Shown here: in pieces, positions 16,181 through 58,190 of the stretch | Layout: every line of letters begins with the position of its first letter | How positions within the stretch are numbered: the first letter of the stretch is position 1 | Origin: Takakia lepidozioides | Lineage: Eukaryota > Plantae > Bryophyta | Direction: 5' to 3' | DNA: 64,000 nt | Assembly (NCBI GenBank): GCA_030704615.1 | Contig: CM060731.1 | Location: forward strand, 51,646,001 to 51,710,000 | Position numbers and translations under genes: made by a program | The notes under the pieces: model-generated | The model's database searches: none | Told to the model about the DNA's origin: nothing | The model's input: only the letters and a program-made list of their open reading frames with translations

Positions 16181-16639
16181 CACGACCTACAGTTATCCCT
16201 GCCTTGGCAGAAACAAAATCTCCTCCTTGCTGCTGACAGCTACAATGACAAACCATAATTTACCTAGCAAACACCCCAACTGCTTACCACCCACTAGTCC
16301 CTGTGTGGAACTGCTGACAAGACGTTAGAAACGTGTCCGGGAGAGAGGATGAAAATTTTGCAGGAAAGCTCTTCGAGCATCTTGTTGTCTGTTATTTCGG
16401 TAAGAGAAGGGATTCACCTTTCTGCCTCTAGTGTCCCACCATTGACTTTGGTTCAAAACATATTCCTTCTAATAAAGCTGTTCCTTGTCTCTGTTTTTGG
16501 TTTTATTTGCCTGCTACCCCATTGGCAGTTACACGTGAAAAACACTCATAACCACCATAGATCCACCCAGAGAGCTAACTTACAAAAGTCTACATGACAA
16601 ATTAGGTTTTGTCTCTGTGCACATTACCTGGGGATCATT

Positions 16640-19055: not shown

Positions 19056-21097
19056 GTGGTAAGTAGGGGTCAAGTAGCAAGAGGGAGGATCAATGTATTA
19101 TTGTTGTCTGAGCCAGGGATAGATGGAGGCAGGAATGGAGTGAGGGTGCAGATCGATCCAAGAGGACTGGATTTCAAGTATAGGAGTACACATGAGGCAG
19201 TGTGGATAGACAGCAACAAGATATCTGCATGGGTAGATGGTCATCTGGAAGCACCTGCAAGACAGTTTACAGAATCAGGCACCTCTGCCATGACCACTCC
19301 TAAAAATGGACCAAGAGACTGAGTCTGCAAGATCTCTTCTGCCACTTGTAGGCATGTGAGGATTCTATGTAAGGCAGGACACCTGAAAGAGGCTATGCAT
19401 ATTTTGAACCGAGGAGGCATTTCAGCAGACTCTAATACGTATGTCTGTCTTTTGCAAAACTGCATGAAGGTGAAAGGCCTAGCCACGGGAAAGCAGGTGC
19501 ACGCCCACATCGTCCAAAGTGGATTTAAGCCAAATGTATTTCTATACAACACCCTTCTCAACATGTATGTCAAGTGCAGGAGCATCATGCATGCACACAG
19601 ATTGTTTGATAATATGCCTGAACGAAATATGTTTTCTTGGACTATAATGGTGGCAGGATACACTGAGCATGGGTGTAGTAGGAATGCCTTGGAGATTTAT
19701 GAGCAAATGCTACAGGGAGGAGTGACGCCCGACCAGGTGACATATATATGCGTTCTCAAGGCGTGTGCCAGCCTGGCAGCCCTGGAAAAGGGCAAAGAGG
19801 TCCATTCTGACATCATGAAAGCTGGAATTGTACCAAACATCATTCTGGAGACTGCCCTTGTTGACATGTATGCCAAATGCGGGAGCATCAAGAATGCGAA
19901 GGGAGTTTTTGATAACATGGCTGAACAAAATGTGGTCTCATGGAGTGCGATGATCACAGGATATTCCCAGCAGGGATGTGGGATGGAGGCTTTAGAGACA
20001 TACAGGCAAATGATCCGGGAAGGGGTGAAGCCCAACCAGGTCTCGTTTGTTAGCATTTGCAATGCGTGTGCAAGCTTGGCATCCCTGGAAAAGAGCAAAG
20101 AGCTCCATACTGACATTAGGAAAGCTGGAATTGTACCAAATGTCATTCTGAACACTACCCTAGTAGATATGTATGCCAAATGTGGAAGCATTCAGGATGC
20201 AAAGATGGTGTTCGACAACATGTGTGAACGAAATGTAGTCACATGGAATGCAATGATCGCAGGATATGTCCAGAATGGGTGTGGGATGGAGGCTTTAGAG
20301 ACCTATGAGCAAATGATACAGGAAGGGGGGAAGCCCAGCCAGGTTACGTTTGTGGGTGTTTGCAATGCGTGTGCCAGCCTAGCAGCTCTGGAAATTGGCA
20401 AAGTGGTCCATGGTGACATCGTGAAAGCTGGAATTGTGCCTAATATCATCTTGAATACTGCCCTCGTGGACATGTATTCCAAATGTGGGAGCATCAAGGA
20501 TGCAGAGGGTGTGTTCAACAAAATGTCCACACGAAATGTGGTGTCATGGAATTCGATGATTGCGGGATATGTCAAGCATGGGTGTCATAGGGAGGCCCTG
20601 CAACTATTTGAAGAAATGGGAAAGGAAGGCTTGAAGCCAAACAGTATCACTTTAGTATGTGTCCTCTCTGCTTGTAGTCATGTCGGCCTATTAGATGAAG
20701 GTAGACACTACTTCGATTCCCTGAGTCAAGATGATGGCCTCACCATGGAGCACTTCGGTTGCATGGTGGACCTTCTTGGCCGTGCAGGGCGATTGGATGA
20801 GGCAGAGGATTTCATCAACAAAATGCCAATTGAACCAGATGTTGTTGTGTGGTGGCCTTGCTTGGTGCCTGCAGAATCCATGGCAATGTAGATGTAGCCG
20901 AACGCACGGCAAAATCCATTCTCAAGTTGGATCCGCAGGATGTTGGAACTTATGTGTTGCTATCTAACATCTATGCAGCAGCCAGCAGATACTGCAAAGG
21001 GGAGAAAAATGATGTCACAAGGTGCATCATGTCCAGAGGTGTCACAAAAGAGCCAGGTCGCTGCTCCATTGAGGTCAGTGACAAGGTGCACACGTCC
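19056..21097 (+). pseudogene. PLS-E PPR pseudogene; divergently oriented paralogue of the 13.5-16.2 kb gene; DYW domain lost
   Basis: In-frame TGA at 19320-19322 (GPRD*V vs GPREGV in the paralogue), a 1-nt frameshift at ~20853, and homology stopping at KEPGRCSIEVSDKVHT (21097). Confidence 0.9.
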
Positions 21098-37633: not shown

Positions 37634-40258
37634 GTCGTTCAAAACTGCTCCTATTCAAGGCTATTATCTGGTCTGTGCGAGACTGTGGCTGGATCTTTAG
37701 CTGCTCAGCTGAGGTTTTTACAGAGAAGTCCAAGATCACCAGACTCCAGGCACAAGCGCTCAAATAATGCTCTTTGGATTGAGGGTTGGTCGAATCCTCC
37801 TTGGCTAAAAGCAGCTCTAGCTTCCTTGATACAAGGTCGAGCACAATCTGGCGCTTTGACAACGCACTGTAAGGCAGGACAAGTAGAACAGGCATTGAAC
37901 ATTTTGAACAAACAAGTCATTGTGGCAGACTCCAATACTTATGTCTGTCTCTTGCGGGAGTGCATCCAAACTGAGAACCTTGAAATGGGAAAGCAGGTGC
38001 ATGCCTGCATTATCAAAAGTGGAAATGACACTAACATCTTTCTACTCAACACCCTTGTCAACATGTATGCCAAGTGCGGGAGCATAGTGGATGCACGCTT
38101 TGTGTTTGAAAACATGCCTCAACGAAACGTGTTTACGTGGACTATAATGATGGCAGGCTATACTGAGCATGGCTGTGCTAGGGAGGCTTTTGAGACCTAT
38201 CAACAAATGAGACAGGAAGGGGTGGTGCCCAGCAATGTCACATTCATCTGTGTGCTGAATGCATGTGCCAGCCTAGGAATCCTGGAAAAGGGCAAAGAGA
38301 TTCATGCTGACATCATCAAAGCTGGAATTGCACCAGACATCATTCTTGAGACTGCCCTTGTCGATATGTATGTCAAATGTGGGAACATGAATGATGCGCA
38401 GCAACTGTTTGACAATATGGATCAACGAAATGTGGTGTCATGGAATGTGATGATCACAGGATATGCTCAGCATGGGTATGCTAGGAAGGCTTTCAACACC
38501 TATGAGCAGATGATGTGGGAAGGAGTTTTGCCCAACAAAGTCACGTTCATTTGTGTGCTCAATGCATGTTCCAGCCTGGTGGAAGAGGGCAAAATGGTCC
38601 ATGCCGACATCATCAGAGCTGGGATTGTGTCATGTATTAAATTGGAGAATGCCCTTGTCGACATGTATGCCAAATGCGGCAACATGAAGGATGCACGTCA
38701 AGTGCTTGACAATATGGCTCAACGAAACACGGTTTCATGGAATACCATGATTGCAGGATATGCTCAGCATGGTTGTGGCATGGCGGCCATTAAGATCTAT
38801 GAGCAAATGATACAGGAAGGGGTACTGCCAGACAAGGTTACATTCATTTGTGTACTCAATGCATGTGCCAACATAGCAGCCTTGAAAAAGGGCAAAGAGG
38901 TCCATGCCGACATCATCAAAGCTGAAATTGCAACACATATTAATTTGGAGAATGCCCTTGTTAACATGTATGCAAAATGCGGGAACATAAGAGAAGCGCA
39001 GCAAGTGTTTGCCAACATGGCTGAGCGAGATGTGGTCTCATGGAACGCAATGATTGCAGGGTATGCCCTGCATGGGTGTGGTATGGAGGCTTTCGAGATC
39101 TATGAGCAAATGATACGGGAAGGGTTGACCCCCAACAGGGTAACCTTCATTTGCACTCTCAATGCCTGTGCCAGCCTGGCAGCGCTGGAAAGGGGCAGAG
39201 AGATCCATGCTGACATCATCAAAGCTGGAGTTGCGTCATACGTTAATTTGGAGAATGCCCTTGTTAACATGTATGCCAAATGTGGGAGTGTGGAGGATGC
39301 ACGGCTAGTGTTTGACAACATGGCTCAGAGAGATATGGTCTCATGGAGTGCGATGATCGCAGGATATGTGCAGCATGGATGTGGTAGGGAAGCTCTGCGA
39401 CTATTTGGACAAATGGATAAGGAAGGTTTGAAACCAAACCGTATTACGTTTATATGTGTTCTCTCTGCATGCAGCCATGTTGGCTTAGTGGATGAAGGCC
39501 ATCACTACTTTGGTTCCATGAGTCGAGATCATGGCCTCACCCCTACAGTGGAACATTTTGGCTGCATGGTGGACCTTCTCGGCCGAGCAGGGCAATTGAA
39601 TGAGGCAGAGGACTTCATCAACACAATGCCAATTGAACCAGATGCTTCAGTGTTGGGAGCCTTGCTTGGCGCCTGCAGAATTCATGGCCAGGTGGAGGTG
39701 GCAGAACGTGCTGCAAAATGCCTTCTCCGGCGGGATCCACATTATGCTGCTACTTACGTGCTTCTATCAAACATCTATGCTGCTGCTGGCAGGTGGGACG
39801 ATGCAGCGAAAGTGAGAAAAATGATGCAGGACAGATCTATTAGAAAGGACCCAGGGCGAAGTTGCATTGAGGTGGACAACTGGTTTCATTCATTTGTTAT
39901 AGAGGACAAATTGCATCCACAAATTGAGGAAATCCATGCAGAGCTGAGGAGATTGTCTTGTCAGTTGAAGGAGGCTGGGTATGTGCCTGACACACGCTTT
40001 GTATTGTATGATGTGGAGGAGGAGCAGAAGGAATCTTCTCTTTGTTACCACAGTGAGAAGCTGGCCATTGCTTTTGGGCTGATCAACACACCCCCAGGGA
40101 CAACTATCCGAGTCATAAAAAACCTTCGGGTATGTGGTGACTGCCACACCGCCACCAAGTTCATCTCAAAGATTGTTGGACGGACAGTTATTGTAAGAGA
40201 TGGGAACCGCTTTCACCACTTTCAAGAAGGGGTCTGTTCTTGTGGAGACTACTGGTGA
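37634..40258 (+). CDS. PLS-E-DYW pentatricopeptide repeat protein (putative C-to-U RNA editing factor)
   Basis: Open frame from the acceptor AG at 37632-37633; a likely micro-exon ATGGTGGGACAACAG (MVGQQ, 37443-37457) would supply the start. P-L-S triplets, E1/E2, PG box, HSEKLA, CGDCH, terminal CGDYW. Confidence 0.96.
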   Translation, partial: VVQNCSYSRLLSGLCETVAGSLAAQLRFLQRSPRSPDSRHKRSNNALWIEGWSNPPWLKAALASLIQGRAQSGALTTHCKAGQVEQALNILNKQVIVADSNTYVCLLRECIQTENLEMGKQVHACIIKSGNDTNIFLLNTLVNMYAKCGSIVDARFVFENMPQRNVFTWTIMMAGYTEHGCAREAFETYQQMRQEGVVPSNVTFICVLNACASLGILEKGKEIHADIIKAGIAPDIILETALVDMYVKCGNMNDAQQLFDNMDQRNVVSWNVMITGYAQHGYARKAFNTYEQMMWEGVLPNKVTFICVLNACSSLVEEGKMVHADIIRAGIVSCIKLENALVDMYAKCGNMKDARQVLDNMAQRNTVSWNTMIAGYAQHGCGMAAIKIYEQMIQEGVLPDKVTFICVLNACANIAALKKGKEVHADIIKAEIATHINLENALVNMYAKCGNIREAQQVFANMAERDVVSWNAMIAGYALHGCGMEAFEIYEQMIREGLTPNRVTFICTLNACASLAALERGREIHADIIKAGVASYVNLENALVNMYAKCGSVEDARLVFDNMAQRDMVSWSAMIAGYVQHGCGREALRLFGQMDKEGLKPNRITFICVLSACSHVGLVDEGHHYFGSMSRDHGLTPTVEHFGCMVDLLGRAGQLNEAEDFINTMPIEPDASVLGALLGACRIHGQVEVAERAAKCLLRRDPHYAATYVLLSNIYAAAGRWDDAAKVRKMMQDRSIRKDPGRSCIEVDNWFHSFVIEDKLHPQIEEIHAELRRLSCQLKEAGYVPDTRFVLYDVEEEQKESSLCYHSEKLAIAFGLINTPPGTTIRVIKNLRVCGDCHTATKFISKIVGRTVIVRDGNRFHHFQEGVCSCGDYW

Positions 40259-43030: not shown

Positions 43031-43119
43031 CCTTGTTGTGCGCATACGTATCGCTACACAACTACATCGTTGTCCAAACTACACCACACATATATGGACA
43101 ATAAAGTAGTCTGCCACAA

Positions 43120-43373
43120 TGATTGAAAACTAGATTCACACTGTTGACACAGAAACACTCAATACAACACAATCACTCATTAAACCCCAAGCTATGGGGA
43201 CTCCACCCCACAACATCATATTCTCCCTTCATAAGCACACCTAGATTCTAAGCAGTGAAGGAGCTCGGTCGTACAGGCTCAACTCGAGAGAGATGAGCCG
43301 CACGACTGACGCTCTCGTGAAGATAACATGGTTCAGGTGTCAAGCTAAACTTGACACCTGACTTAACACTTGA
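43120..43373. repeat. ~250-bp direct repeat of 53471-53745 (LTR-derived fragment)
   Basis: Near-identical from TGATTGAAAACTAGATTCACACTGTTGACAC to CCTGACTTAACACTTGA, with one short internal indel. Confidence 0.9.
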
Positions 43374-43712
43374 ACTAAATCCAAGTGTTAAATACAAATA
43401 ACTAGCTTTATTCTAGTTAGTTTTCACACTGTGTTTATTTAACTTGGCCATAATCGCCCCCCTAGCTGGTGGATAGGTCCCTCTAACTCCAGATAACTAC
43501 AAGATGTAATAGCCACAGCCGTACTAAGTCCTCTATCACTGTCCCTATTGTACTCAAACTCTATAGACCAAGAGGCCAGATACAAGAGTAGCCCCATCGT
43601 TAGTCGTCGTCTTGCAATCTGTGAACTTGAGCTAGGATCTCGTGTGTTCAAGGTCTCCTAGTAGCTTGGCCTTGCATTTCTTGTTAGTCTTCCATGGTTG
43701 TATCCACTCCCA

Positions 43713-43860
43713 CTATCCAATGCAATGCGGACATAACCAATCCCCATCATGAACCATCTCAAGAGGTGGAGTCAAGCATCCCATATGCCAACCTCTAGAG
43801 CATCGATCACACACCAGCATGGTGGCCGCCCCTCTAGCAGACCCACACAACATGCACCTC
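43713..43860 (-). other. PHD zinc finger at the integrase C-terminus
   Basis: CMLC...MLVCDRCSRGWHMGCLTPPLEMVHDGDWLCPHC is a complete C4HC3 pattern. Confidence 0.92.
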
Positions 43861-46800
43861 AAACTTGTAGGTACCACTGCCAGGTTTGGGTCAATCCTAC
43901 CATCGACATTCGGAAAGTGACATGGCGCACAATTACGCACATGGTCCTTCCAAGTTATGCCATCCCGACCCTCCAAGATCAAGACGCCTGAGGGCAAGAC
44001 CTCTTGAACCCTCAAAATAACACGTCCTGCAGTCACATCCAAGGTCGTAGGAGCAGTCTGCTGCAGAGAGACATAGTCACCAGGGTTGAATTTCCAAACC
44101 CCAGGACGATAGCCCCCACCACGTATGGTACCATACCTCAACGTATCACGATGTTGTGCCATTGGCAGGTTCTCGAAAGTCATGGTCATGACTTTCTTGA
44201 ACAACTCTGCATGCTGATCACATGCACGTGCCCACACGTCCGGATCATCAAGGTTAAGACTGTAACAGCTTCTCTACAATCCGGCTCTCGGCCAAAGAGA
44301 AGAAAGTATGGTGAGAAGGAGGCTTGTTTGCTGAACCTGTAGCCCATGGCTAACCAGGGTAACTGAAGTCCCAATCTCCTAGTGTCCCTTCTACAAGCCA
44401 TACTTGCGCAAACCCCTTTTACTACTGTCTGAACAACTCTCTCTGTCCAAGCCATCGTGCTCAGGATAATCCCGAAGAAGTGTGGCGTTTTCTACAACGG
44501 CTCTCTTTCACACCAACTCACTGGAAACCCCCTAAAGAACGCTCTCGCTCTCAATCCTTGGTCATAGAGTACCCAACTGGAGCACCGAATCGGCTAAGTA
44601 CACAATCCAAGAATGCATACGCAGCTCCCTCACTAGCCTTATCAGGCAATGGAACCAACTCAATCCACTTGGAAAAGTGCTCCACCATCACCAATACGTA
44701 CTTGTTGTGGCGCATGGTCAATGGCAACGGCCCTGCGAAGTCAAGACTCTACCTGTAGCCCAATCCCATGATCGGAAGAGGGTGCAATTGTGGTGTAGGG
44801 GCGTTGAATGAAGCACACACCCTGTCACACACCATGCACCTAGCCACAAATTGTTGCACCTCTGTGTGCATACCACGCCACCAATATTGCCCCTGCAATA
44901 GACTATGAGTGCGTCGCACCCCAAAATGCCTCAACTCCTCATGGGCATGCCGCACTAACCGTGCCCGCTGTGTTGGGTGAGGCACAATCCTCACTCGACC
45001 ATCCTCCCACACTCGAAGCAGGTGTGTCCCCTCCCACTTGAATCTCTTGGCTCGTTGTAGGATCCGATCCTTCTCCTTGGCAGTCACAGTGGCTGTCGTG
45101 TCTCCAGTGCGGAGGTAGTCCAACACAGCTGAATCCTCATGTATATCTTTAGCGTCACCTTGCTCATTGCTGACCTCAGGGTCCTCCGACACTTGATCTA
45201 CAGTCATCCCTGTTGCAGGTCCAAGCTGGCCTTCTGTTGCCAAGATACACAGAAATGCAGATGCATGCCATCCGGGCACCATCTCCTCGTCCGTCTCACC
45301 ATGCCACCGAGCTCCAGTATCATTCTGCTGGCTCGTGCATGGATTGTGACTCAACCCATCTGCATCCCGATTGACCAAACCCGATCGATGCACAACCTGA
45401 AAGTTATACTCTTGAAGGATAAGTGCCCACCGTGCAAGCTTCCCCGTAAGCTTGTCTGACTCCATCAACCACTTAAGTGGTTGGTGATCCGTGACAAGGG
45501 TGAAGAGATTGTCGTATAGATAGCACCTGAAGTGTGCCACGGCCCACACTGCAGCTAAGCATTTTCCCTCATATGAGCTATACTTAGTCTCTGCAGCATT
45601 GTTCGAGCGGCTAGCATAAGCCACTACGAACTTTCTTCCCTCGTCATCCACATGTGTGAGCACCGCTCCAAGCCCCAGCATGCTCCAATCTGTATGCAGC
45701 TGAAAAGGACGCCCCTTGATAGGTCGTCTCAAGATGGGCGCCGAGGTCAACCTCGCCTTGAGCTCTTGAAAAGCTTGTTCTTGCTCATCTTCCCACTGCC
45801 ACTCCCGGTCCATCTTGGTCAGTTTGGTTAGAGCCTTTGCAATGACACTAAATCCCTTAACAAACCGTCTATAATAGTTTGCTAACCCCATGAAAGCTCG
45901 AACTCGGCTCACATCCGTGGGGCGTGGAATCTGTGCAATGGACTCTACCTTAGTCTGTTGTACCCCCAATCCTCCAAGATATATCATGTGACCCAGATAC
46001 TCAATTTGGTTGTGGAAAAACTTGCACTTCCCCGGATGTAACTTCAATCCGTGCGCCCTCAAGCGCTCAAATATCACCTGAAGGTGTTTCTCATGCTCCT
46101 CCACCGTCCACTAAAATGATGATGTCATCTATGTAGCACCGACAAACTCCACCCCTGCTAGAATCCTGTCCAAACTCTCTGAAACTCTGCCGAAGCGTTC
46201 TTAAGCCCAAATGGTAAGAACCGCCACTGGTATAGGCAATCCTTCCCGTGCTCATTGATCCCCCAGAATGTCGTCTTCTGCTTATCCGCCTCCTTGATCG
46301 GCAACTGGTGATATCCGGATCGTAAATCCAAAGTGCTGAAGACCTTGGCATGCCCAATGGCATCAAAGATCTCCTTTGGTGTCGGCATGGCATACCTATC
46401 GGACTTGGTCTGACAATTTACAGGCCGGTAATCACCGCACATACGTCTCTCCGTCCAATTGCCATAGACATCCTTCTTGGCTGGCATCACTGTGGCTGAA
46501 GCATACTCTCCTCCAGATAGCTCTACCAAACCAGCCTAGCTCCCAAAGGTCCTGAGTTTCATCTTAATCAAGGACCTCTTCATGTCACTATATCTATAGG
46601 GTCTCCGAAAGATTGGCGTATCAGTAGCCAATTCAATGCGAATCTCTTGACCCTTCAGTGCTCCTAAGTCCTTCAAACTGAAGGCAAAGCAGTTCCTGTA
46701 AGCCCTCAAGAACCGCCGTATACGTCGTCTTTATCCTCCGGTGACTATAGGTCCAACAACAGGCTCCCAGTTGTCCTCCGTGACTGCAACCTTGAGTCCT

Positions 46801-47139
46801 GCAGACTTAGAGGTAGAAGACGCGTCCCATGGTTGTTATGCTGCAACCTCTTGAGCAGTGACCACTGCCTCCTCTGTCAGTGACAATGTCTCATCCTGCC
46901 CCATCATCCCAAACCTTGAGGACCTCTTCAACCCGAGAAAAATCCCCAACCTCCCATCACCGCCGCCTTGGCTGCCAACTCCTTCTGAACCTCGAGCACC
47001 TCCCACGTGTGCCATGGATGCGGCCTGCACCTCGTGGTCCTCACCTGTTCGCCCCCCCACTCGCTGCCTGTACCGTCTCGGTAGGCAGGGAGACCATCAA
47101 GGGAAGTGTACTCCGTACTCTGCGCTGCTCAGCCATAGC

Positions 47140-48100
47140 CAAGCTGATAATCCAGGTCAAGCAATTGAGATCCATTGCTTGCCCAACACCTGACGACGTG
47201 ATGCCTCAGAAAGAGATGGCACCGCCGTGGTACCAGTGGTAAAACCCATTGCCCGCTCTCGGCTCGTCAGCATTGGGCTCCACTAATTGCTGCAACTGGC
47301 TATCCCACAAGAGGCCAGGTCCACCATCCCGGAAAGCATGAGATCCTGGAAAGCTGAGAAGTGTAGGCAATGCGGCTCGTGGGTGACCCACCTTATTGAC
47401 CACTTCCAAAGGTGATCGGTCATTGTGTCTCACACGCTGAGACTGTCTCCATATGTCCAAAATGCTATCCACGTCAGGTGTGGTGGCCGCTGCACCCCAT
47501 CAAATGCACGCTTGAGCAGTGCAGGTGGCATCAAGTTGGTCCACCATAGTCATGGGCCATGAGCCCGTGACCCCACTGCAGCTGCGTCCAGCAACACTGC
47601 TAACCCAAGCCCAGACCGCACTTGATGCACACTGGCCATCACCTTGGCCCGAGAATCACCCATCAATGGCACATTCTCCAAAATATATGTCGGAGAGTCT
47701 GTCTGCTGAAGCTGTAAATAGCGTAGGACCCTCAACATCTCCCAAAACAGGCGTAACCTTGAGTCTTGTAACCCATTGCCATGCCCGGCTCATGAATGCC
47801 CTTGGCAGGGCCAACCTGCCACTACCAAATGAATAGGGTCAACCCGCTCCAAATCATGCGCCCCCAACAAAGAGATGTCTGCTGGCAATGCTTGTTGGTA
47901 TCCACGAACTGCAGACACTGGCAACAAATCAGGGTACTGCTGCACCAACTGAGCAACATGGCGCAGTGAGATGCGTCGTGCAGTCTCATCCATCTTCACA
48001 TACAGGTAACGTCGAACTCGTACACTTGCCTGCAGCACTGCAGCCAATCAAGTGCTGATCCCGTCAAACAAGTCCAGAAGGCATATGCCTTCATCCGGGC
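47140..48100 (-). pseudogene. DNMT3-like C5-cytosine DNA methyltransferase domain embedded in the Gypsy pol
   Basis: Motif I LLDLFDGIST (48060-48080), IV LVVAGWPCQGHS, VI YILENV, VIII DAAAVGSRAHGP*LWWTNL, IX ERAMGF, X RRQVLGQAMD, in linear (non-permuted) order; three stops and several frameshifts. Confidence 0.92.
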
Positions 48101-51100
48101 ACTGCCACACAAGAGGGTGTGGTGTCCAATGACGATAACTGAGGTGGTCTTGGTGCAATCACCGCACTCTCCTCCTCTCCTGACGGTACAAAGGCCTCTA
48201 CCTAGGCTTGTTGCATTCGTCTATCAGCAGCCTGCTGCAAATGCTTGCTCGTACCCCACAATGGAGTGAGAGCAACCATGGCAGACAACTCCGTTGTACC
48301 ATGCATGTCATCCTACTCTGATGGAGGTGGCACATCCTCTGCATGGGCATTGCCCTCCAGCAACTCTCCATGCCAACTAACTGCAGCTGTGAAGGCTGCT
48401 AGTGTTGGCATCTTGCCCCGCTGGGCAGCAGCAACACCCCCAATGAATGTCACAGGGAGCTGTACACAACGACCATCCCCTGACTGCCATCCAGGCTTGT
48501 AGGATGCTAACTCCTCCCAAAAATCCAGGGTGAAGCCTATGGGATATAACACTGCCCCACCAACGAGGACATTGTAAGAGACCGCATCTTCACAATGGCC
48601 TTGGCTCACATCACTGAGCCATCTATAGGATGATCCGGCTGTAGTCTAATGGCCAACTCACGCCGTGTCATGCCCCGAGCCTGCTCTGATCCTCCCAGAG
48701 ATGTCTGTATCTGGAAAGGACAAGGCTTCATGTCCGCCTCCATGAGGCCCAAACCTGCAATAGCAGCTCTGCCCAACATCAGTGACTGAGCTCCCGAGTC
48801 CAACAAGACCCGCAGTGGCCGGTACCTTTTGCCTGCCGGTCCACTCAAAGAGAAAATGTCATCCTGGTTGTCTAACAAGACAACTCCAGGTTTCACCATG
48901 ATGCGCTGAAAGGCTGGCTTAGCTGGCAGCTCTGTCAACCTGACAGCTGCAGCTTGTCATGGCGCAGCCGTGGCAGTCTTGACCCTCAAATCCGAGGATC
49001 CCTCTGCCACTACACCTATCACTAACTCCGCAGAAGATGAAATGACATCCCCACTCTCGCAGAGTGTTGCTGCTAGTCTAAACACTGCAACTGGTCTTAC
49101 CCCATACGTCGCGATCATGGTTGCCGAGAATAGTGGGGCCTGACACACAGAGGTGGTTGCCCCCAACAACACACAGGCTGCACTAGCCTTGGTAGCAGGT
49201 GTCAGTGCTGCACGTGTAGCTCTCCCCAACGGCACAATAACGGCCTCTGTATCTGTCGGGCGATGTCATCGACACTGTCTCTCTCCCAAGATGAATGATT
49301 GAGGCAACCTAGCCTGACGGCTTGCCTCCCCACGCTGTGGATCTAACTCCACCTCTGCACCTCGTGGCTCAGGAACTCGTGCTGCTCCTCGAGTGACGGC
49401 TGCAGCAGAATCCACCTGTATAAGTGGCCATTCAAGTGCTGCCCCGCACATAAATCCCATGCCTCCCATGTCTCCTCCGTCAGGATGACGCTGCTGAGGA
49501 GGAACAGGAGGTGGACCCTCAGGTCTTGGAGCTGGTACCACCCGAGCCGTGGCCATGGCAGCAAGCCGTTGCTCTAGCTGCTGAAGCCGGTTAGCCAAGC
49601 CTTGGTCAATGCCCTGACCTCCACGTCCTTGGCCATACTGTGCTTGCCCTCGTCCTGCACCTTGTGCCTGACCACCTCGTCCTCTCTGAGGTGCTCCACT
49701 TTGCCCTCGGCCACCATTGTTCCATTGGAACTAGCCTCGCCGCAACTCAGGGTGCAAGTCATAACATTGGGCATCGTCATGCCCATACTTGCCACAATGC
49801 CCACACTGCAACTATGCAGGCTGTGCTTGTGCCGGCCTTTTGCCACTCTCTGGGCAATCTTTCTTGACATGAGGTCCTCCACATGTCCAACATATCACCC
49901 CTGGTTGCTGTTGGGTTGCAAAAGAAGCTACTGGCCTCTGCACTTGAGGTCCCCTGTAAGCTCCATGGAATTTGGGTTGGGCAACCTTGCCCCCCTGACC
50001 ACGCTGTTGGGCAGTCCCTTGTACCTGTTGGCTGGCAGCTGCGCCTCGTACAGGCATGTCCTTGCCAAATCCAATGGTAACAACTCGCTCCTCCACCATG
50101 TTGAGCTCAATCCGCTCAGCCAGCAAAAACACATCTGCTAATGTGGGTTGGGCCGCTTGTAACAGGGTTGCATCCCGCACCCTTCTCCTGAGCTCCTTGT
50201 CCAAAATTCCATACCAGAACTGGACAACATGAGCTTCAGTAACCCCTTGGGTCACACTTATCAAGCGCCTCATACGAGTGTAGGCCTCTCGCAAGCTCTC
50301 ACTGGATTTGCGCTAGAAGTCTTGCAAACTTCGCAGCTTCTCTGTCCGTACGCCTTGGTAGTTCGTCCGCAACTCCTGGAAGAACTCCACCACCGGGTTG
50401 AATCTAGGCACATGTGTTGTAGTCGTGGCAGGAGGAGTAGTAGCACCTTTTGAACTGGTACCACCTGCAGAAGTACCGACACTACTTGTTCCACTACTAG
50501 TGCTGGCAGTGGGAGATATTGGTGCTGATGCAACTACTGGTCGCGTCATGCCTCGAGTAATGGAGACGTAGTCAGGTGACCAATACATCCTCCACTCCTC
50601 AATCTCTGCTTCATGTCCTCGCCTGAACTCGTGGTAATCGTCCATAGGCGGGCCTTCCAAATGCTGGAACAGTCCCTTCCACGCCATGAATGGGGTGAAC
50701 AGCTGTGGATTGCGCATCTGCTGCAAATCACACCAGCTGTCAAACTCCTGGATAACGTCATCCAGCTCGATTGTGCCCACAGCTCCAGAGTACCTACGAG
50801 GCCCCTGGTAGCTCCATACATCTCCTCCATGGCGTCCCACAACTATGGCGAAGGAAACTGCACACCTGTTGATGAAGCCTCCGAGTCTGTGTCAGACTCT
50901 GCACTAGTTGAGGGTGGAGGTGAAGATGGTCTGAACCGAATACCTCGTCTTGTGAACCCACTTTCACTGCTACTGCCTGTAACCGTACTCCCCTCAAAAC
51001 CCTTGGGTAACTCCGTGATGACACTCACAACCCGCACCTCTCTCACGTGATCCTATAAGGCTCTAGTACTAATTCTAATAGTGACACAGGTGAGCACTTG

Positions 51101-53271
51101 TTGCGGATTAAGGGTCATATCCCAGTGGCTAAGGGCACCTGCACCTGCATCCACCGCAAGAACTCCTATGGTTGGCTGGTCATCAACCCAGTCTCACCAT
51201 AGAAGAAACACTGGTGGTCTTGTTGGTCATCACTCTAGCCTCACCACCAACAGCATACTCTAGGATTGACCGGTGATCAAATCCGGCCTAATCCCTATGA
51301 AAGCAAGCGCCCACACAAAACCAACATGGCGCACAGTCAAGCATGCAGGTGTTGGGGGGGATCCAAACACAAGAAATCAAAACATCAACACCCCCACACC
51401 AAAATCCATCTGCAGTGCTGATCCTGCAGAATATCCCAGCCCAAAAACCCCGGACTGACTAGCCTCTACCAAGAGAGGCTTTGGCAACTACAAGTACAAA
51501 GTAATGAAAATAGTAAAGAGAAGGAGGGGAAGAATAGAGGCCCGACCAAGCAAGATCTAATCCTGATCTATGCTATCAACTGCTAGACTTCTCTCAAAGT
51601 GCCTCGCTCTGCATGATAGTAAGGTGTAGGAGGTATATCTATGTCCAGAAACCTGCCACTAACCTTATCCCAAGCTACAGTAGCTCGCTCTAACCAACCC
51701 TCCTCCTCTCTCTGCCAGGTAGAGACAAAGCAATACTCCCCTATCTCCCGCTCACTGAATACTAAAAAAAATAAACGTAGGGTCTGACAGTCTCTCAACT
51801 CGAAAGCTTTGAGACGGTTGCGGGTGTCCTCGTTGCGAATGACTGCATTTCCTTCAAGCAGAACAAACTTTTCATTGCTAATGAACCCCCGCTCGTGGTT
51901 GCCTTGTGCAGAGCGTGTCCGGCTGCAACCATGTCTGATTGCACAAACTTGTGTAGCTCCTGCTCCTCTGCTCCAGTACACTACGGCCTTGTGGCTGAAC
52001 ACCTTGGTGACTGACTTACTGACCAAGGCAGTGGATTGGAAGTGTGCATGTGAACGGTTTCCGAAGTCTGATGGAGGTGGTGATGATAAAGAGAATCACA
52101 TAATTCAGGGGGAACATGAGAGCAAGCCTGTGGTGGTGCGTCTGTAACCACAAATGAATCCTGGGAATTATAGGCCGTTGCCAGGGAGTATGTGAGAACT
52201 ACATGAACATGTTCGGAACCCGTAGATAACCTGGGAACAGCTTTTAATGGCGAGAACGTTTTGGTGTCAAAAAAAAAAAAAAAAAAACCCTTTTGATCTA
52301 ATTTAAATGATTTAGAGCCTAATTGGTCATATCTTTGTCAAATGGACGCCGTTTGACTTAGTTTTTGGGGGGATAGTTATAGAAAGAGGAAATCTACCTA
52401 TCTAGTTTTTAGGACTCTGCTAAAAATCTATGGAAATTTTTGAGTGTGAGTGAGAGTGTGAGGGTGCTATGAAAGATCCACAATTCTGTTTCTAGAACCT
52501 GTTGTGGTCTACATGAGAGACAAATCTGTGGATGTCCTCCTTGTATGGCTGGGGGAAATGAGGACATAATTGAAGGGCATGTCTCTTCTCTTAGCCTGTG
52601 CACACAAGGGGACAAGATTTATGTTTCTCAAGGAACTCAGATTGATTGGAGTGGAGAGCAGTTGGACAAGTTGATTGCATACTGGGAGTCAGGCATTAGC
52701 AATAGACAACAAACTGTTGTAGTTGGTGTTGAGGGCCTCAATATTGCTTTGGACAGTCAGAACTCTGTTGGAGCAAGCAGTTCTGCAGCTGTAGGTGAAA
52801 TACCAAAGTGGGTAGAAGCTAGGCTTGGAACACAGCCAATACAATTCAGCACTGGTTTGCACAACTCGCAGTTGTCTCCGCCACTCTGCCCCCTTAGAAT
52901 CCCACTAGGAAGTAGTGATATTGGGTCTAAGTTGGGAAGCAAGTTCACATGTGTATTGCACCAGCGCCGGGAGACTGCCCACCTTCACAGCAGACTGTAT
53001 GCCCTTACGCCATGCCTGCCACCACCCTTGCCTACTGGAGCACACCCCTTTGGAAGACAGCTTTGTTTGCACTCAAGAGCGTCATCTATGTCCGGGTAAA
53101 CGGTTCTTAGACCCCATCAGTCTCAAGAGCTATGTCGTGAAGAATAGCAGAAATAGCTGCATGGACACGTCTCCATCTAGCTGCAGCTGCCAGGTTGACA
53201 GATCACATGAACAAAAATGCCAGAGCCTACACAATGAAGAAAGTTGAACAAAGTCCGCACTGGAACTCTAC

Positions 53272-53766
53272 TGTTGATGATGCACTTGACATCTTTCTAA
53301 CTAAAAATTACCTGAACACATATAATCACTTCTCTGTCTCCAACCAGCTTGTCATAAACATAATCTACAAACCACCATAATTTTCTTCTCTCACTTTCAA
53401 AACAAAAACCACAAGTGCTAAAACTAAACTCACCTCTGGCACTCACAGATGCAAGCTCATTTCTCTCGAGTGATTGAAAACTAGATTCACACTGTTGACA
53501 CAGAAACACTCAATACAACACAATCACTCATTAAAACTACGAGTCGAGCCAGGGGCACCCCAAGCTATGGGGAATTCACCCCACAACATCCTATTCTCCC
53601 TTCATAAGCACACTTAGATTCTAAGCAGTGAAGGAGCTCGGTCGTGCAGGCTCAACTCGAGAGAGATGAGCCGCACGACTGACGCTCTCGTGAAGATAAG
53701 ATGGTTCAGGTGTCAAACTAAACTTGACACCTGACTTAACACTTGAGCTCCTTGAAAATCTGTCAC
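53272..53766 (-). mobile_element. Putative 3' LTR (~495 bp) of an element lying to its right
   Basis: On the minus strand a PPT-like GGGGGGTGGT (53767-53778) is directly followed by TGTGACA...; candidate end ...TCATCAACA at 53272; contains the segment repeated at 43120-43373. Confidence 0.55.
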
Positions 53767-53965: not shown

Positions 53966-54865
53966 TGGACTTCGGAATGCTGGAATTCTGCACCTCTAGT
54001 ATCATATCATCTTCAGTACCTCATATACTAAAAATTATTAAAAACTTATACTAGTGTAAAAAATAGAAGCATCTACAAACTTAGAATGTTTGGCATGGTT
54101 TGGTTCAATGCTGAAACCTTCACTTCTAGCAGCAGGAGCAACACCCTTTTCAAATACACTGGACTTCACAAATGCTAGAAATCTGCACTAGTACAAATTC
54201 ATTTTTAGTATACAAAAGATTACTAGGAAGATTATTAAAAACTTGTACTAGTCTACAAAATAGAAGCCTCTACAAACTTACAATATCTGGCATGGTTGGA
54301 TCAATGTTGAAACCTTCACTTCTAGCGGTAGGAGCTACAACCTTCTCAAATACACTGGACTTCACAATGTTGGAAATCTACACAAGTACAAACTCATCTT
54401 TAGCACCTCATAATACGAAAGATTACTAGGAAGATATTAAAAACTTATACTAGTCTACAAAATAGAAGCCTCTGCAAACTTACAATGTCTAGCATGGTTG
54501 GATCAATGCTGAAACCTTCACTTCCAGCGGCATGAGCAACATCCTTCTCAAGTACACTGGACTTCACAATGTTGGAAATCTACACAAGTACAAATTCACC
54601 TTTAGCGCCTCATAATACGAAATTTCCCTTCAACAAAAAAAAAAATACGAAAGATTACAAAGAAGATTATTAAAAACTTATACTAGTCTACAAAACAGAA
54701 TCCTCTACAAACTTACAAGGTCTGGCATGGTTGGTACAATGTTGAAATCTTTACTTCCAGCGGCAGGAGCAACACCCTTCTCAAATACACTGGACTTCAC
54801 GATGCTGGAAATCTGCACACATACAAAATCATCTTTAGCGCCTCATAATACTAAAGATGATTAAG
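53966..54865 (-). repeat. Tandem repeat, ~4.4 copies of ~195-230 bp; each unit is a 96-nt exon-like segment plus a GT-AG intron
   Basis: TGGACTTC anchors at 53966, 54160, 54356, 54558 and 54791. Minus-strand AG|96 nt|GTAAGT at 54812-54717, 54579-54484 and 54377-54282. Confidence 0.9.
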
Positions 54866-55929
54866 AACTTATTGCTTGTGGCACAAATTGGTAAAACTGG
54901 ATAAAACTTCTGTCCAATTTCAAGCCAATTAAGTTTCTAATTCGTACACATGTGGAATGGCGGAGGAGCTAAACCTAAGATTTGTGAAAAATAGCACTTC
55001 AGGTATGGTCTATTTGTTCCCCAACCTGTTCTTGCTTACCTTCTGGCTCAGGATGTGGTAGAAACTTATACAAACTTGGTTAAAGATTCATCTTAAATAT
55101 TCTGCATCCATGCAGTAGAACTGGTTGAAGTGGTCTTATGGTTTCAATACCTGTGCATTAGTGGTGGTTTTGAGCATCTGTACCAACCATGCACATTTGT
55201 GTCTTGTTGCTTTGCTATATGAATGTCTAGATCTTCAAGTTCTGTTGTTGGACCTGATTCGATCATATATGTTTCTCCATCTCCTACTATCAATGTTCCA
55301 GATAGTTCCTCTTTAAAAGTGAAGGAGATTGACTCAGATGTAGAGGATGACACCGAGCTTGTAGAGCATTGCGATGACCGTTGGCCTATGTGTGCAGAAT
55401 TGAAATCTAAAACCAAGTGCATTCCTATGTATCCAAGCGTCTCCTATGTCGAGGCCTATCTAAGCCCAACTGCAATCTTATATATATCCAAGTATATCTC
55501 CCATGTAGAGGCCAAATGTCCACTGTCATCTAACCCCAAGTGCAATCTCTTATGTATCCAAGAACGTCTCCCACGTCAAGGCCCAGTTTTTTTTTTTAAT
55601 GAATTTATTGAGTAGTAATATATCCAATAATTATTGATATATCTCTTGTTGAGGCTCCAATCATTGTGTAGGCCATTTTGTTATTTTTCACGAATTTCCA
55701 GTGACCAAAATTCCAAATCTCCCACATGAAGGGCCAGTCATTGCTCCAGGAAAGCCCACTTTGCTATATTCACGAATTTCCAGCGACCGAAAATACTTAA
55801 ATTCCATATCTCCCACACCGCAGGTCCCAAAACCATGATTCCAAGTGGGTGCACCCCTCCTCATGGAGGGCTTTCCAAGGGCACCAAGCGCGGGGAGTGG
55901 GCCCGCAGTTTGGGAGATCTCAACTATGC

Positions 55930-56070: not shown

Positions 56071-56339
56071 ATTAACTAAACATGTTGCAAAGTCTCTCTG
56101 CAAGAGAGCCAACAAACAAACAACCTGGCTCCATATAAGATTGATTGTCATACTCTCCCTCATGGCACACCGTAAGATGTGAGTGGATTTGCGTCATGTG
56201 GTTGCAAAGGGCAAATTACTGATTCCTCCACTACGAAGCTTACATACCTGCCGTCCGTATGATTATTGAGTTTTTTCTTGAGGGAAACAATATAACCCTT
56301 CGAAGGTATTGAGAAGTTAGGGTTGTGCGGTGCTGGGCG

Positions 56340-58190
56340 ATGGCCATGGCTTCATCGGCGCTCCCTTCTGCTGGATCGCTCTCCCTGCAATCCGCATTCC
56401 AATCCCTACGTGTTGAGGAATTTTTCCCCCGCCATCTCCAGCTTTTTGTCAGCGGTGGGGGATTGTTTGGTAAGCAGCAGTTGGCGTTGAAAGCTGTGAG
56501 TTTTCGAGCTATGTCAGCTGCAGCTGGTGTATCCCCCGGAGCTGCAACTGCTACCTCAGTATCAGCGGATGTCTCACTGACAGGACCCAAGCAAGCCCTA
56601 CTGTCCCTGTCAGACAAGCAGGATGTGGATGTTCTTGCACAAGGCCTTACTGATCTGGGCTTCAAGCTGGTGTCAACGGGTGGCACTGCATCAGCATTGG
56701 AGGACGCAGGGTTTGCTGTCACGCGAGTTGAAGAACTGACATCCTTCCCAGAGATGTTGGATGGGCGAGTCAAGACCTTGCACCCAGCAGTGCATGGAGG
56801 CATACTTGCAAGACGAGATCTGCAACCCCACATGGATGCACTCCAGCAACATGGAATTGGGGCAATTGACGTGGTGGTAGTGAATCTCTACCCTTTCTAC
56901 AGCACAGTTACGACTCGAGAAGGAGCATCTTTCGACCATGCGTTGGAAAACATTGACATTGGAGGTCCTGCAATGATTAGGGCTGCTGCAAAGAATCACA
57001 GGGATGTGTTCGTGGTAGTGGACCCAGCCGATTATGCAGCATTGTTAACAAACCTGCAGGGTAAGGGTGACACTGAAAGTTTTCGAAGGAAGCTCGCATG
57101 GAAGGCCTTTCAGCATGTGGCTTCCTATGACTCAGCTGTTGCTGAGTGGTTTTGGGAGCAAACTAGTAGCAAAGATTCAACAGGCAAACAGGAGTTTCCT
57201 CCGAGCTTGACGGTGCCTCTCATTTTAAAGTCATGCTTAAGGTATGGTGAGAACCCACACCAACGAGCAGCCTTCTATGAGGATAGGTCACTGGCTGGAG
57301 TTGGCGGAGGAGGCATTGCCACAGCTGTGCAGCACCATGGCAAGGAAATGTCATATAACAATTATCTGGACGCTGATGCTGCTTGGAACTGCGTATGTGA
57401 GTTCCGTAATCCCACGTGTGTGGTGGTGAAGCACACCAACCCTTGTGGGGTCGCCTCCATTGGGCCAAACACTGATATCCTGGAAGCCTACCGCCTTGCA
57501 GTCAGGGCTGATCCTGTCAGTGCGTTTGGGGGCATTGTCGCCTTCAATGTGGAGGTGGACGAGACCCTTGCCCGTGAGATACGGGAATTTCGTAGCCCAA
57601 CAGACGGTGAGACCCGCATGTTCTATGAGATTGTTATTGCCCCCAAGTACACAGAAAAGGGGCTTGAGTTGCTCAAGGGAAAATCCAAGACATTGCGCAT
57701 TTTGGAAGCCCAAGAAAGCACAAGAGGGAGGTGCTCACTGCGGCAGGTTGGTGGCGGATGGTTGCTACAGGAGGCTGATGATCTCACTCCAGATGATCTC
57801 GGTTTTGAGGTAGTTAGCATGGGGGTCCCTTCTCTGGAGCAAGTGGATGATGCACGGTTTGCATGGCTGTGTGTCAAGCACGTGAAAAGCAATGCAATTG
57901 TTGTGGCCAAGGATAACAGAATGCTGGGGATGGGGAGCGGTCAACCTAACCGAGTGAAGAGTTTGCAAATAGCACTTGAAAAGGCGGGTGAGGCAGCCAA
58001 GGGTGCTGCTCTTGCTAGTGATGCTTTCTTTCCATTTGCCTGGAATGATGCTGTTGAGGAGGCCTGCAAGGCCGGGGTGAAGGTGATAGCACAACCAGGA
58101 GGCAGCATGCGGGATCAGGATGCTATTGATTGCTGCAATAAGTATGGCGTTGCTATGCTCCTCACTGGCGTTCGTCATTTCCGACATTGA
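56340..58190 (+). CDS. purH: Bifunctional AICAR transformylase/IMP cyclohydrolase, organelle-targeted, intronless
   Basis: ALLSLSDK, STGGTA, FPEMLDGRVKTLHPAVHGGIL, ENIDIGGP, LRYGENPHQ, KHTNPCG, KHVKSNAIV, ASDAFFPF, TGVRHFRH; Ser/Ala-rich N-terminal presequence. Confidence 0.97.
   Translation: MAMASSALPSAGSLSLQSAFQSLRVEEFFPRHLQLFVSGGGLFGKQQLALKAVSFRAMSAAAGVSPGAATATSVSADVSLTGPKQALLSLSDKQDVDVLAQGLTDLGFKLVSTGGTASALEDAGFAVTRVEELTSFPEMLDGRVKTLHPAVHGGILARRDLQPHMDALQQHGIGAIDVVVVNLYPFYSTVTTREGASFDHALENIDIGGPAMIRAAAKNHRDVFVVVDPADYAALLTNLQGKGDTESFRRKLAWKAFQHVASYDSAVAEWFWEQTSSKDSTGKQEFPPSLTVPLILKSCLRYGENPHQRAAFYEDRSLAGVGGGGIATAVQHHGKEMSYNNYLDADAAWNCVCEFRNPTCVVVKHTNPCGVASIGPNTDILEAYRLAVRADPVSAFGGIVAFNVEVDETLAREIREFRSPTDGETRMFYEIVIAPKYTEKGLELLKGKSKTLRILEAQESTRGRCSLRQVGGGWLLQEADDLTPDDLGFEVVSMGVPSLEQVDDARFAWLCVKHVKSNAIVVAKDNRMLGMGSGQPNRVKSLQIALEKAGEAAKGAALASDAFFPFAWNDAVEEACKAGVKVIAQPGGSMRDQDAIDCCNKYGVAMLLTGVRHFRH

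Follow-up and report, generated by a model that had tools for sequence, protein, structure and literature searches.

A decayed Ty3/Gypsy element with a DNMT3-like methyltransferase domain ahead of a conserved stop in Takakia, and its green-lineage relatives

The element and its surroundings

The window, by which we mean the whole 64 kb stretch of DNA analysed here, carries on its minus strand a Ty3/Gypsy element with a DNMT3-like domain between the protease (PR) and the reverse transcriptase (RT) and with a PHD finger as the last domain. Using Marchantia and Sphagnum gene models in tblastn we found that gag, PR, DNMT, RT, RNase H (RH) and integrase (INT) are colinear on the window, and Pfam and the related loci likewise gave the gag-PR-RT-RH-INT order of Ty3/Gypsy elements. 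Downstream of DNMT the Pfam matches to RVT_1, RT_RNaseH, Integrase_H2C2 and PHD were each over the cut-off; upstream of it the matches to Retrotrans_gag (E 0.016) and aspartyl protease (E 0.004) were both weak and under it. The features are listed below.

53471..53749, minus strand: 5' terminal repeat A1, 5'-truncated (96% over 193 nt to 43184-43376; local alignment 279 vs 257 nt)
51586..52095, minus strand: leader 170-aa open frame without known family (multi-copy depth in host runs)
49500..50830, minus strand: gag (ORF1 start) with two CCHC-like knuckles, broken by stops (PF03732 E 0.016, below cut-off)
48480..48900, minus strand: aspartic protease with LLDSG motif, frameshifted (PF13975/PF13650 E 0.004, below cut-off; colinear with relatives)
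47047..48101, minus strand: DNMT3-like C5 cytosine methyltransferase, C-terminal domain of ORF1, pseudogenised here (PF00145 3.1e-10)
46830..46838, minus strand: in-frame stop plus CAR-YYA (TAA CAA CCA) at the ORF1/ORF2 border, predicted read-through site (position common to relatives)
45980..46772, minus strand: reverse transcriptase (ORF2), frameshifted (RVT_1 1.1e-10 and 3.2e-7; tblastn)
45406..45795, minus strand: RNase H (PF17917 3.7e-34)
43900..45150, minus strand: integrase (H2C2, core, C-terminal), broken (PF17921 6.7e-14; tblastn)
43716..43860, minus strand: PHD finger, end of ORF2 (PF00628 1.2e-10)
43454..43467, minus strand: polypurine-tract-like AGCTAGGGGGGCGA (same motif ahead of repeat B1 in L050, L053 and L069)
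43120..43451, minus strand: 3' repeat A2; B1 and the A2 start are apparently deleted in the window copy (joint 43117>43452)
43034..43119, minus strand: terminal repeat B2, with TTGTGG start and GCACAACA end (relatives: GCACGACA); placed from the relatives' ends and a depth of about 1e4 below 42900

The gag region matched the Marchantia Mp4g09160 model (aa 7-708) at 48% in tblastn, and its knuckles were recognised in a six-frame reading. The 170-aa leader frame had no Pfam or Atlas match and was present in none of the 80 related loci L018-L097. For the PHD finger the best matches among solved structures were CHD4, KDM5A/B, ATXR5 and PHF21A, whose PHD fingers prefer H3K4me0. By analogy, the PHD of the element is predicted to be a reader of unmethylated H3K4. 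Where the window differs from other copies, as seen in host-run contigs, it mostly reads T where they have C and A where they have G, a pattern consistent with decay by deamination. The window copy of the element is dead.

The element is bracketed by the repeat pair 53749-53471 and 43376-43120. Repeats in the order A-internal-PPT-B-A-B (PPT, polypurine tract) were found in seven related loci (L050, L053, L069, L078, L081, L086 and L089), the plan in detail being A...PPT-B-(2 nt)-A-B. The split-repeat spans are 4000-13203 in L050, 1676-10805 in L053, 3633-12957 in L081, 3376-13030 in L086 and 43034-53749 in the window. The window retains a truncated A1, the PPT, A2 and B2; B1 is gone and the left end is lost. 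A joint from 43117 to 43452, which takes the PPT straight to B, was seen in 4/4 host runs. We did not find two complete LTRs with a tRNA primer site, A1 being followed by CTC and not TGG (tRNA complementarity was judged by eye). The B-A joint resembles an end-to-end junction, thus priming and strand transfer must differ from those of ordinary LTR elements.

All six loci examined for their ends have TGTCATG and CAYGACA-like termini (TG..CA). Target-site duplications of 4 bp were found at 5/6 loci, corresponding to 4/5 distinct insertions, with that of L086 lying after a short duplicated end. These duplications in the relatives imply insertion by integrase. The REXdb Phygy clade has an NCGN target-site preference (PMC6317226); such a preference is ruled out here by the duplications CATA, AAGG, GGTC and CCAA.

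Elsewhere in the window we observed a tandem repeat of about 200 bp in four units (53966-54873), just past the truncated 5' end of the element, and three long frames, related to one another and containing repeat units of 303 nt, at 13547-16186 (minus), 19323-20891 (plus) and 37634-40258 (plus). Pfam identifies the first of these as a PPR-E-E+-DYW editing factor, consistent with a land plant; the other two frames are look-alikes. An unbroken 625-aa frame with a transit-peptide-like start at 56313-58190 (plus) encodes the AICARFT/IMPCHase bienzyme, and adjoining it, from 59561 onward (plus), is a glycine decarboxylase P gene whose first exon is long and which has introns further on.

Identity and conservation of the methyltransferase domain

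Six-frame reading resolved the DNMT into four minus-strand pieces (48101-47478, 47472-47263, 47261-47181 and 47181-47047) with three frameshifts and with three in-frame stops, all in the first piece. The peptides from which a first-pass annotation had recognised a methyltransferase are present in the minus-strand frames of this region. The Pfam alignment it had proposed as a check was positive: the first piece alone, with stops given as X, matched PF00145 at E 3.1e-10 (40.4 bits against a cut-off of 22). Motifs I-X are linear and align colinearly with DNMT3A. The window domain retains the Cys and ENV; motifs I, II and VIII deviate and the frame is broken.

A profile built from 16 relatives of the window DNMT ranked DNMT3A first among solved structures (1e-22), followed by DNMT3B/C, DRM (2e-14) and HhaI (3e-7). 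The AlphaFold model of an unbroken relative (P0004; pLDDT 76, pTM 0.80) had DNMT3A as its top Foldseek match (8e-18). Thus among solved structures both profile and Foldseek place the element DNMT nearer to DNMT3 than to DRM, DNMT1, DNMT2 or bacterial enzymes. Colinear alignment, profile ranking and structural model agree with the DNMT3-like identity and linear motif order claimed at first reading, and support assignment of the domain as a putative DNMT3-like C5 cytosine methyltransferase. A DRM-type enzyme was ruled out, since the motif order is linear, that of DRM is permuted, and DNMT3A outranks DRM.

We counted catalytic residues in two alignments of 68 and 150 rows (218 in total). The catalytic Cys is present in 65/68 and 150/150 rows (215/218), the motif VI Glu in 218/218, and the motif VIII Arg is near-invariant over the same 218 rows. 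The Pro of the PC motif is replaced by Glu in 14/68 and 78/150 rows. Between the open copies L063 and L064 dN/dS was 0.14 for DNMT and 0.06 for RT, and between the window and three loci it was 0.11-0.12 for DNMT with dS near saturation. Decayed Sphagnum-like copies gave 0.5-0.9 among themselves and a third-family pair gave 0.29. Purifying selection acts on the DNMT between families (dN/dS 0.11-0.14).

A DNMT piece of the window matched 52 longer proteins at up to 75% identity. The named matches are from Marchantia polymorpha, Calypogeia fissa, Sphagnum troendelagicum and S. fallax, with S. jensenii among the cluster members, and Marchantia has open Gag-PR-DNMT gene models of about 1280 aa. A metagenome scan confirmed 309/600 stretches, and the best 80 of these 309 were used as loci. 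PR upstream and/or RT downstream of the DNMT was found in 76 of these best 80 loci (PR 64, RT 61, neither 4), which were picked by DNMT and so could not reveal copies that lack it. A search from the RT side returned 97 matches. In 51 of them DNMT and a full RT share one ORF (DNMT after RNase H in 43, ahead of RT in 8). Nothing can be learned from the 39 that begin just upstream of RT, and 4 more are partial; the last 3, of which two are distant elements, have a long N-terminus but no DNMT. DNMT is thus absent from at least one chlorophyte-type RT relative, P0415, whose N-terminus is long. Among the metagenome loci we also observed two element fragments in opposite orientation, each with a DNMT match (L066, 276-3677), and an inverted RT-RH-INT block upstream of DNMT (L084).

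In public runs of the host species, of which X1 placed 69,054 contigs on the window, summed contig depth, which is not copy number, was 4.8-6.3e5 over DNMT, 5.7-6.8e5 over gag and about 2e2 over the flank at 54.1-54.5 kb. DNMT depth is thus similar to gag depth and three orders over the flank, again as summed depth and not copy number. The element family is high-copy in the host.

These results bear on whether the domain could be a one-off retrocopy or nested insertion of a host DNMT3 gene. The sequence is DNMT3-like, and host DNMT3 genes exist in bryophytes according to the accessible part of PMC6453930. However, the domain has the same position in several genera and in 76 of the best 80 loci, depth in the host runs is even across the family, and DUF3444, which plant host DNMT3s carry, was absent in the 15 relatives scanned. 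We therefore rule out a nested host gene, an explanation to which we give practically no credence. The view taken at first reading that the domain is a trait of the family holds: the domain matches PF00145, and relatives carry it in the same place.

The stop between ORF1 and ORF2

The DNMT closes ORF1 (Gag-PR-DNMT) ahead of a shared stop and does not lie mid-Pol. Open Gag-PR-DNMT relatives are 1278-1437 aa long, with 41-84 aa beyond the domain in the 1278-1332-aa set, and open RT-RH-INT-PHD proteins of about 1030-1080 aa have their N-terminus just before RT. The RT-frame stop of the window (46838-46836) is at a position common to relatives. The first-pass annotation had placed the domain between PR and RT, which the colinear tblastn matches uphold, and in a continuous pol frame with RT, which this positional stop contradicts.

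In the Sphagnum-like family a stop at a fixed codon was found in 31/36 examinable loci (22 TAG, 9 TAA; 30 then CAA), a count that overstates independence since some loci are one insertion sampled twice (e.g. L050/L069). A second family has TAG-CAGTTA in 2/2 loci (L063 and L064), and the window has TAA-CAACCA. Stops due to decay are followed by CAR in 25/865 cases, and the most recurrent decay stop occurs in 12/33. CAR-YYA is the read-through signal of TMV (UAG CAR YYA), and UAA is also read through there, in plants, as described in the accessible part of PMC2754532. The conserved stop with its CAR points to read-through and to Gag-level amounts of the enzyme. From the sequence context, we consider that the ORF1/ORF2 stop is probably read through.

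The arrangement differs among relatives. DNMT and RT are split by the stop in the window's family and lie in an open frame in a third family (18 loci examined, L072-L097) and in Closterium P0368, which are without the shared stop; one Klebsormidium copy is represented by two gene models. Gag-level dosage is therefore not universal. Folds 3' of the stop, compared by eye without a shuffle control, had no shared structure.

Alternatively, the same element may express ORF2 by splicing, by reinitiation or from a separate transcript, in which case the DNMT would still travel with Gag. An ATG lies two codons past the stop in the Sphagnum-like family (CAA-CCC-ATG) and four codons past it in L064, which would allow ORF2 to be made other than by read-through, and since the former family has this early Met and CAA-CCC in place of the full CAR-YYA, reinitiation fits it. 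Automated Marchantia models (P0008, P0017 and P0026) splice DNMT to RT, and the transcriptome-derived ORF2 P0370 is labelled 'complete' alone. Nevertheless ORF1 and ORF2 are in one frame at 43/55 junctions (6 loci with insertions left out), CAR is retained in three divergent families, and L063 and the window have no early Met, their first in-frame Met being 116 and 84 codons past the stop, respectively, inside RT. We regard these routes as unlikely and read-through as the preferred reading.

History, proposed function and known systems

The PR-DNMT-RT layout is also present in Marchantia, Calypogeia, three Sphagnum species, Closterium and Klebsormidium. A profile search returned 529 clusters (50% identity) at E < 1e-30. 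Among the best 150 of the 529, which were inspected, long members are mostly RT-RH-DNMT-INT-PHD, the named ones coming from Scenedesmus, Chromochloris and Haematococcus. DNMT precedes RT in other members, among them Closterium and Klebsormidium nitens KFL_013780020, the latter being Gag-PR-DNMT and followed on the same 7,497-bp contig by a gene model for RT-RH-INT. Judged from these sequences, the family extends beyond embryophytes: it is a green-lineage clade to which Klebsormidium, Closterium and chlorophytes also belong.

As separate observations, P0039, P0163, P0205, P0411 and about 80 more chlorophyte-type Gypsy polyproteins have DNMT between RNase H and integrase and then PHD, and many chlorophyte-type element DNMTs escape the Pfam DNA_methylase model. 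A search of viral contigs yielded 17 loci, all of them distant phage-type methyltransferases apart from one giant-virus enzyme. The methyltransferase of one 505-kb viral contig (L003, 10001-10855) matched over the whole domain at 22%, on a long branch of unsure placement.

Dereplication left 221 of 288 rows for the DNMT tree, whose outgroups were prokaryotic and giant-virus sequences only, and 133 of 195 rows for the RT tree. In the DNMT tree the streptophyte and chlorophyte layouts are split (0.99 in FastTree, 100 SH-aLRT in a quick IQ-TREE run) with the root unresolved; the PR-DNMT-RT layout was not recovered as a rooted clade in the quick IQ-TREE tree. The window groups with Marchantia, Calypogeia and Sphagnum (0.88-0.91). 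The RT tree has a streptophyte clade (0.90) that includes Klebsormidium, with the window likewise nested among the bryophytes. Separate trees with Klebsormidium elements had been proposed in the first-pass annotation, and the window falls with the bryophytes in both, host DNMT3 and DRM not being among the rows. This agreement of DNMT and RT trees favours one old lineage in which the domain appears to have moved once.

Horizontal transfer from algae would be a different origin for the bryophyte elements, in place of descent from the green-plant ancestor. The DNMTs of Marchantia, Calypogeia and Sphagnum are 73-79% identical, and we found no named matches from Physcomitrium, hornworts, ferns or seed plants in protein searches that were weak and crowded. 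Against transfer, RT and DNMT trees follow host lineage with bryophytes nested in streptophytes, and the window and Sphagnum-like loci have diverged almost to saturation at synonymous sites. We think transfer improbable and favour the single old lineage.

Taken together, we interpret the window element, with reasonable though limited confidence, as a dead copy of a high-copy element of the KnitGypsy-Dnmt3 kind, which encodes Gag-PR-DNMT3, a probably leaky stop and RT-RH-INT-PHD, and whose particles are predicted to carry DNMT at Gag-like levels and to C5-methylate cDNA. Genomic RNA would be translated into much Gag-PR-DNMT and little read-through polyprotein, and the protease would free the DNMT inside the particle. 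The DNMT would then methylate the new cDNA, either ahead of integration or while it proceeds. Insertion with a 4-bp duplication would fall to the integrase and its CHD4/KDM5/ATXR5-type PHD, the PHD possibly steering integration to nucleosomes without H3K4 methylation. The benefit to the element may be that new copies come pre-marked like host heterochromatin.

Catalysis is the weakest link of this mechanism, because the Klebsormidium domain showed no activity in yeast and the element has no extra CpG loss. The accessible part of PMC5890265 describes no methylation in yeast by the Klebsormidium DNMT domain, a result its authors judged inconclusive, and de novo CG methylation in yeast by DIRS-borne DNMT3 domains. 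We found no CpG depletion as a sign of self-methylation, the value being 0.48 in the window element and 0.46 in its flanks, and higher in the element than in the flanks in 4/5 loci. We lean slightly towards a DNMT that is catalytically active on cDNA.

The domain may instead be kept for another job, such as acting on host chromatin in trans or on RNA, or a structural role in nucleic-acid or SAM binding in the particle. Gag-level amounts would exceed the need of a few cDNA ends, the PC motif is variable, and the yeast and CpG results above would fit such a job as well. On the other hand, hardly any of the 218 rows departs from the Cys, motif VI Glu and motif VIII Arg, the related DIRS-borne domains methylate CG de novo (PMC5890265, accessible part), and the chlorophyte domain adjoins integrase. 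A non-cDNA job is thus the less likely reading, and methylation of cDNA remains the one we prefer.

More tentatively, and with less than even confidence, an ancient PHD-guided Ty3 lineage with a working DNMT3 may predate the chlorophyte/streptophyte split. In bryophytes the domain would have moved to lie before the leaky stop, with capsid-level enzyme marking insertions and perhaps adding to the host methylome. Since 2018 the role of transposon-borne DNMTs has been a standing question, in hosts that do not lend themselves to manipulation. The open Gag-PR-DNMT frames of Marchantia polymorpha, annotated as hypothetical proteins, make genetic and methylome tests possible. Such elements can inflate the number of DNMT3 genes counted in a bryophyte or algal genome. 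DNMT-RT fusions were reportedly noted already by Iyer et al. 2011, said to be reference 3 of the 2018 paper.

The closest known system is KnitGypsy-Dnmt3 of Klebsormidium nitens (de Mendoza et al. 2018, PMC5890265), which in the accessible part of that paper is a Ty3/Gypsy RT-RH-INT element with an intronless linear DNMT3-like domain under purifying selection and with DIRS-like A-coding-B-A-B split repeats. The present family likewise has an intronless DNMT3 in a Gypsy polyprotein, A-coding-B-A-B repeats, and DNMT and RT ancestry shared with Klebsormidium: GAQ93235.1 is on the same side of the DNMT tree as the window, and the Klebsormidium RTs are in the same RT clade. The link to the 2018 elements suggested at first reading is thus corroborated by repeats, RT clade and DNMT split. 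In contrast, PMC5890265 as accessible has the DNMT share the Pol ORF with RT and RNase H and describes its acquisition by the K. nitens lineage as independent, whereas here the domain ends the Gag-PR ORF before the conserved stop and relatives occur in bryophytes, Closterium and chlorophytes. The window element also differs in being in a land plant and at high copy number. Later papers, in their accessible parts, cite KnitGypsy-Dnmt3 as streptophyte.

Other systems share single features. The chlorophyte element Gypsy-7a_cRei (PMC9940879, accessible part) has a Ty3 RT and a PHD finger, and DNMT is not among the domains listed in its description. Gypsy proteins of Scenedesmus, Chromochloris and Haematococcus carry a homologous DNMT (35-42% identity) but have it between RNase H and integrase in a single Pol ORF. 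SymbioDIRS-Dnmt3 and SymbioLINE-Dnmt (PMC5890265) and the EpiLTRs (bioRxiv 10.64898/2026.05.21.726589) are, in the accessible parts of these sources, also retroelements that carry a C5 methyltransferase, but they belong to other retroelement classes or have a DNMT4-sister enzyme, and have other hosts. The plant host enzymes PpDNMT3, MpDNMT3b and DRM share the DNMT3-type catalytic fold; as described in the accessible parts of PMC6453930 and 10.1101/2021.02.12.428880, host DNMT3 carries a C-terminal DUF3444 and DRM is permuted, whereas the element domain has neither feature. The TMV-type signal (PMC2754532, accessible part) resembles the stop followed by CAA-CCA in the window and by CAG-TTA in L063 and L064; however the largest sampled family has CAA-CCC, and read-through here is predicted from sequence.

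We did not find this family described in embryophytes or chlorophytes, nor the conserved ORF1/ORF2 stop, in a literature search that largely left out subscription papers, figures and some supplements. The kind of element is known from Klebsormidium (2018), and its extension to land plants and chlorophytes and the stop appear to be new. With the distribution found here the history changes from a one-off capture in Klebsormidium to a broad green-lineage clade with two domain positions and two expression layouts.
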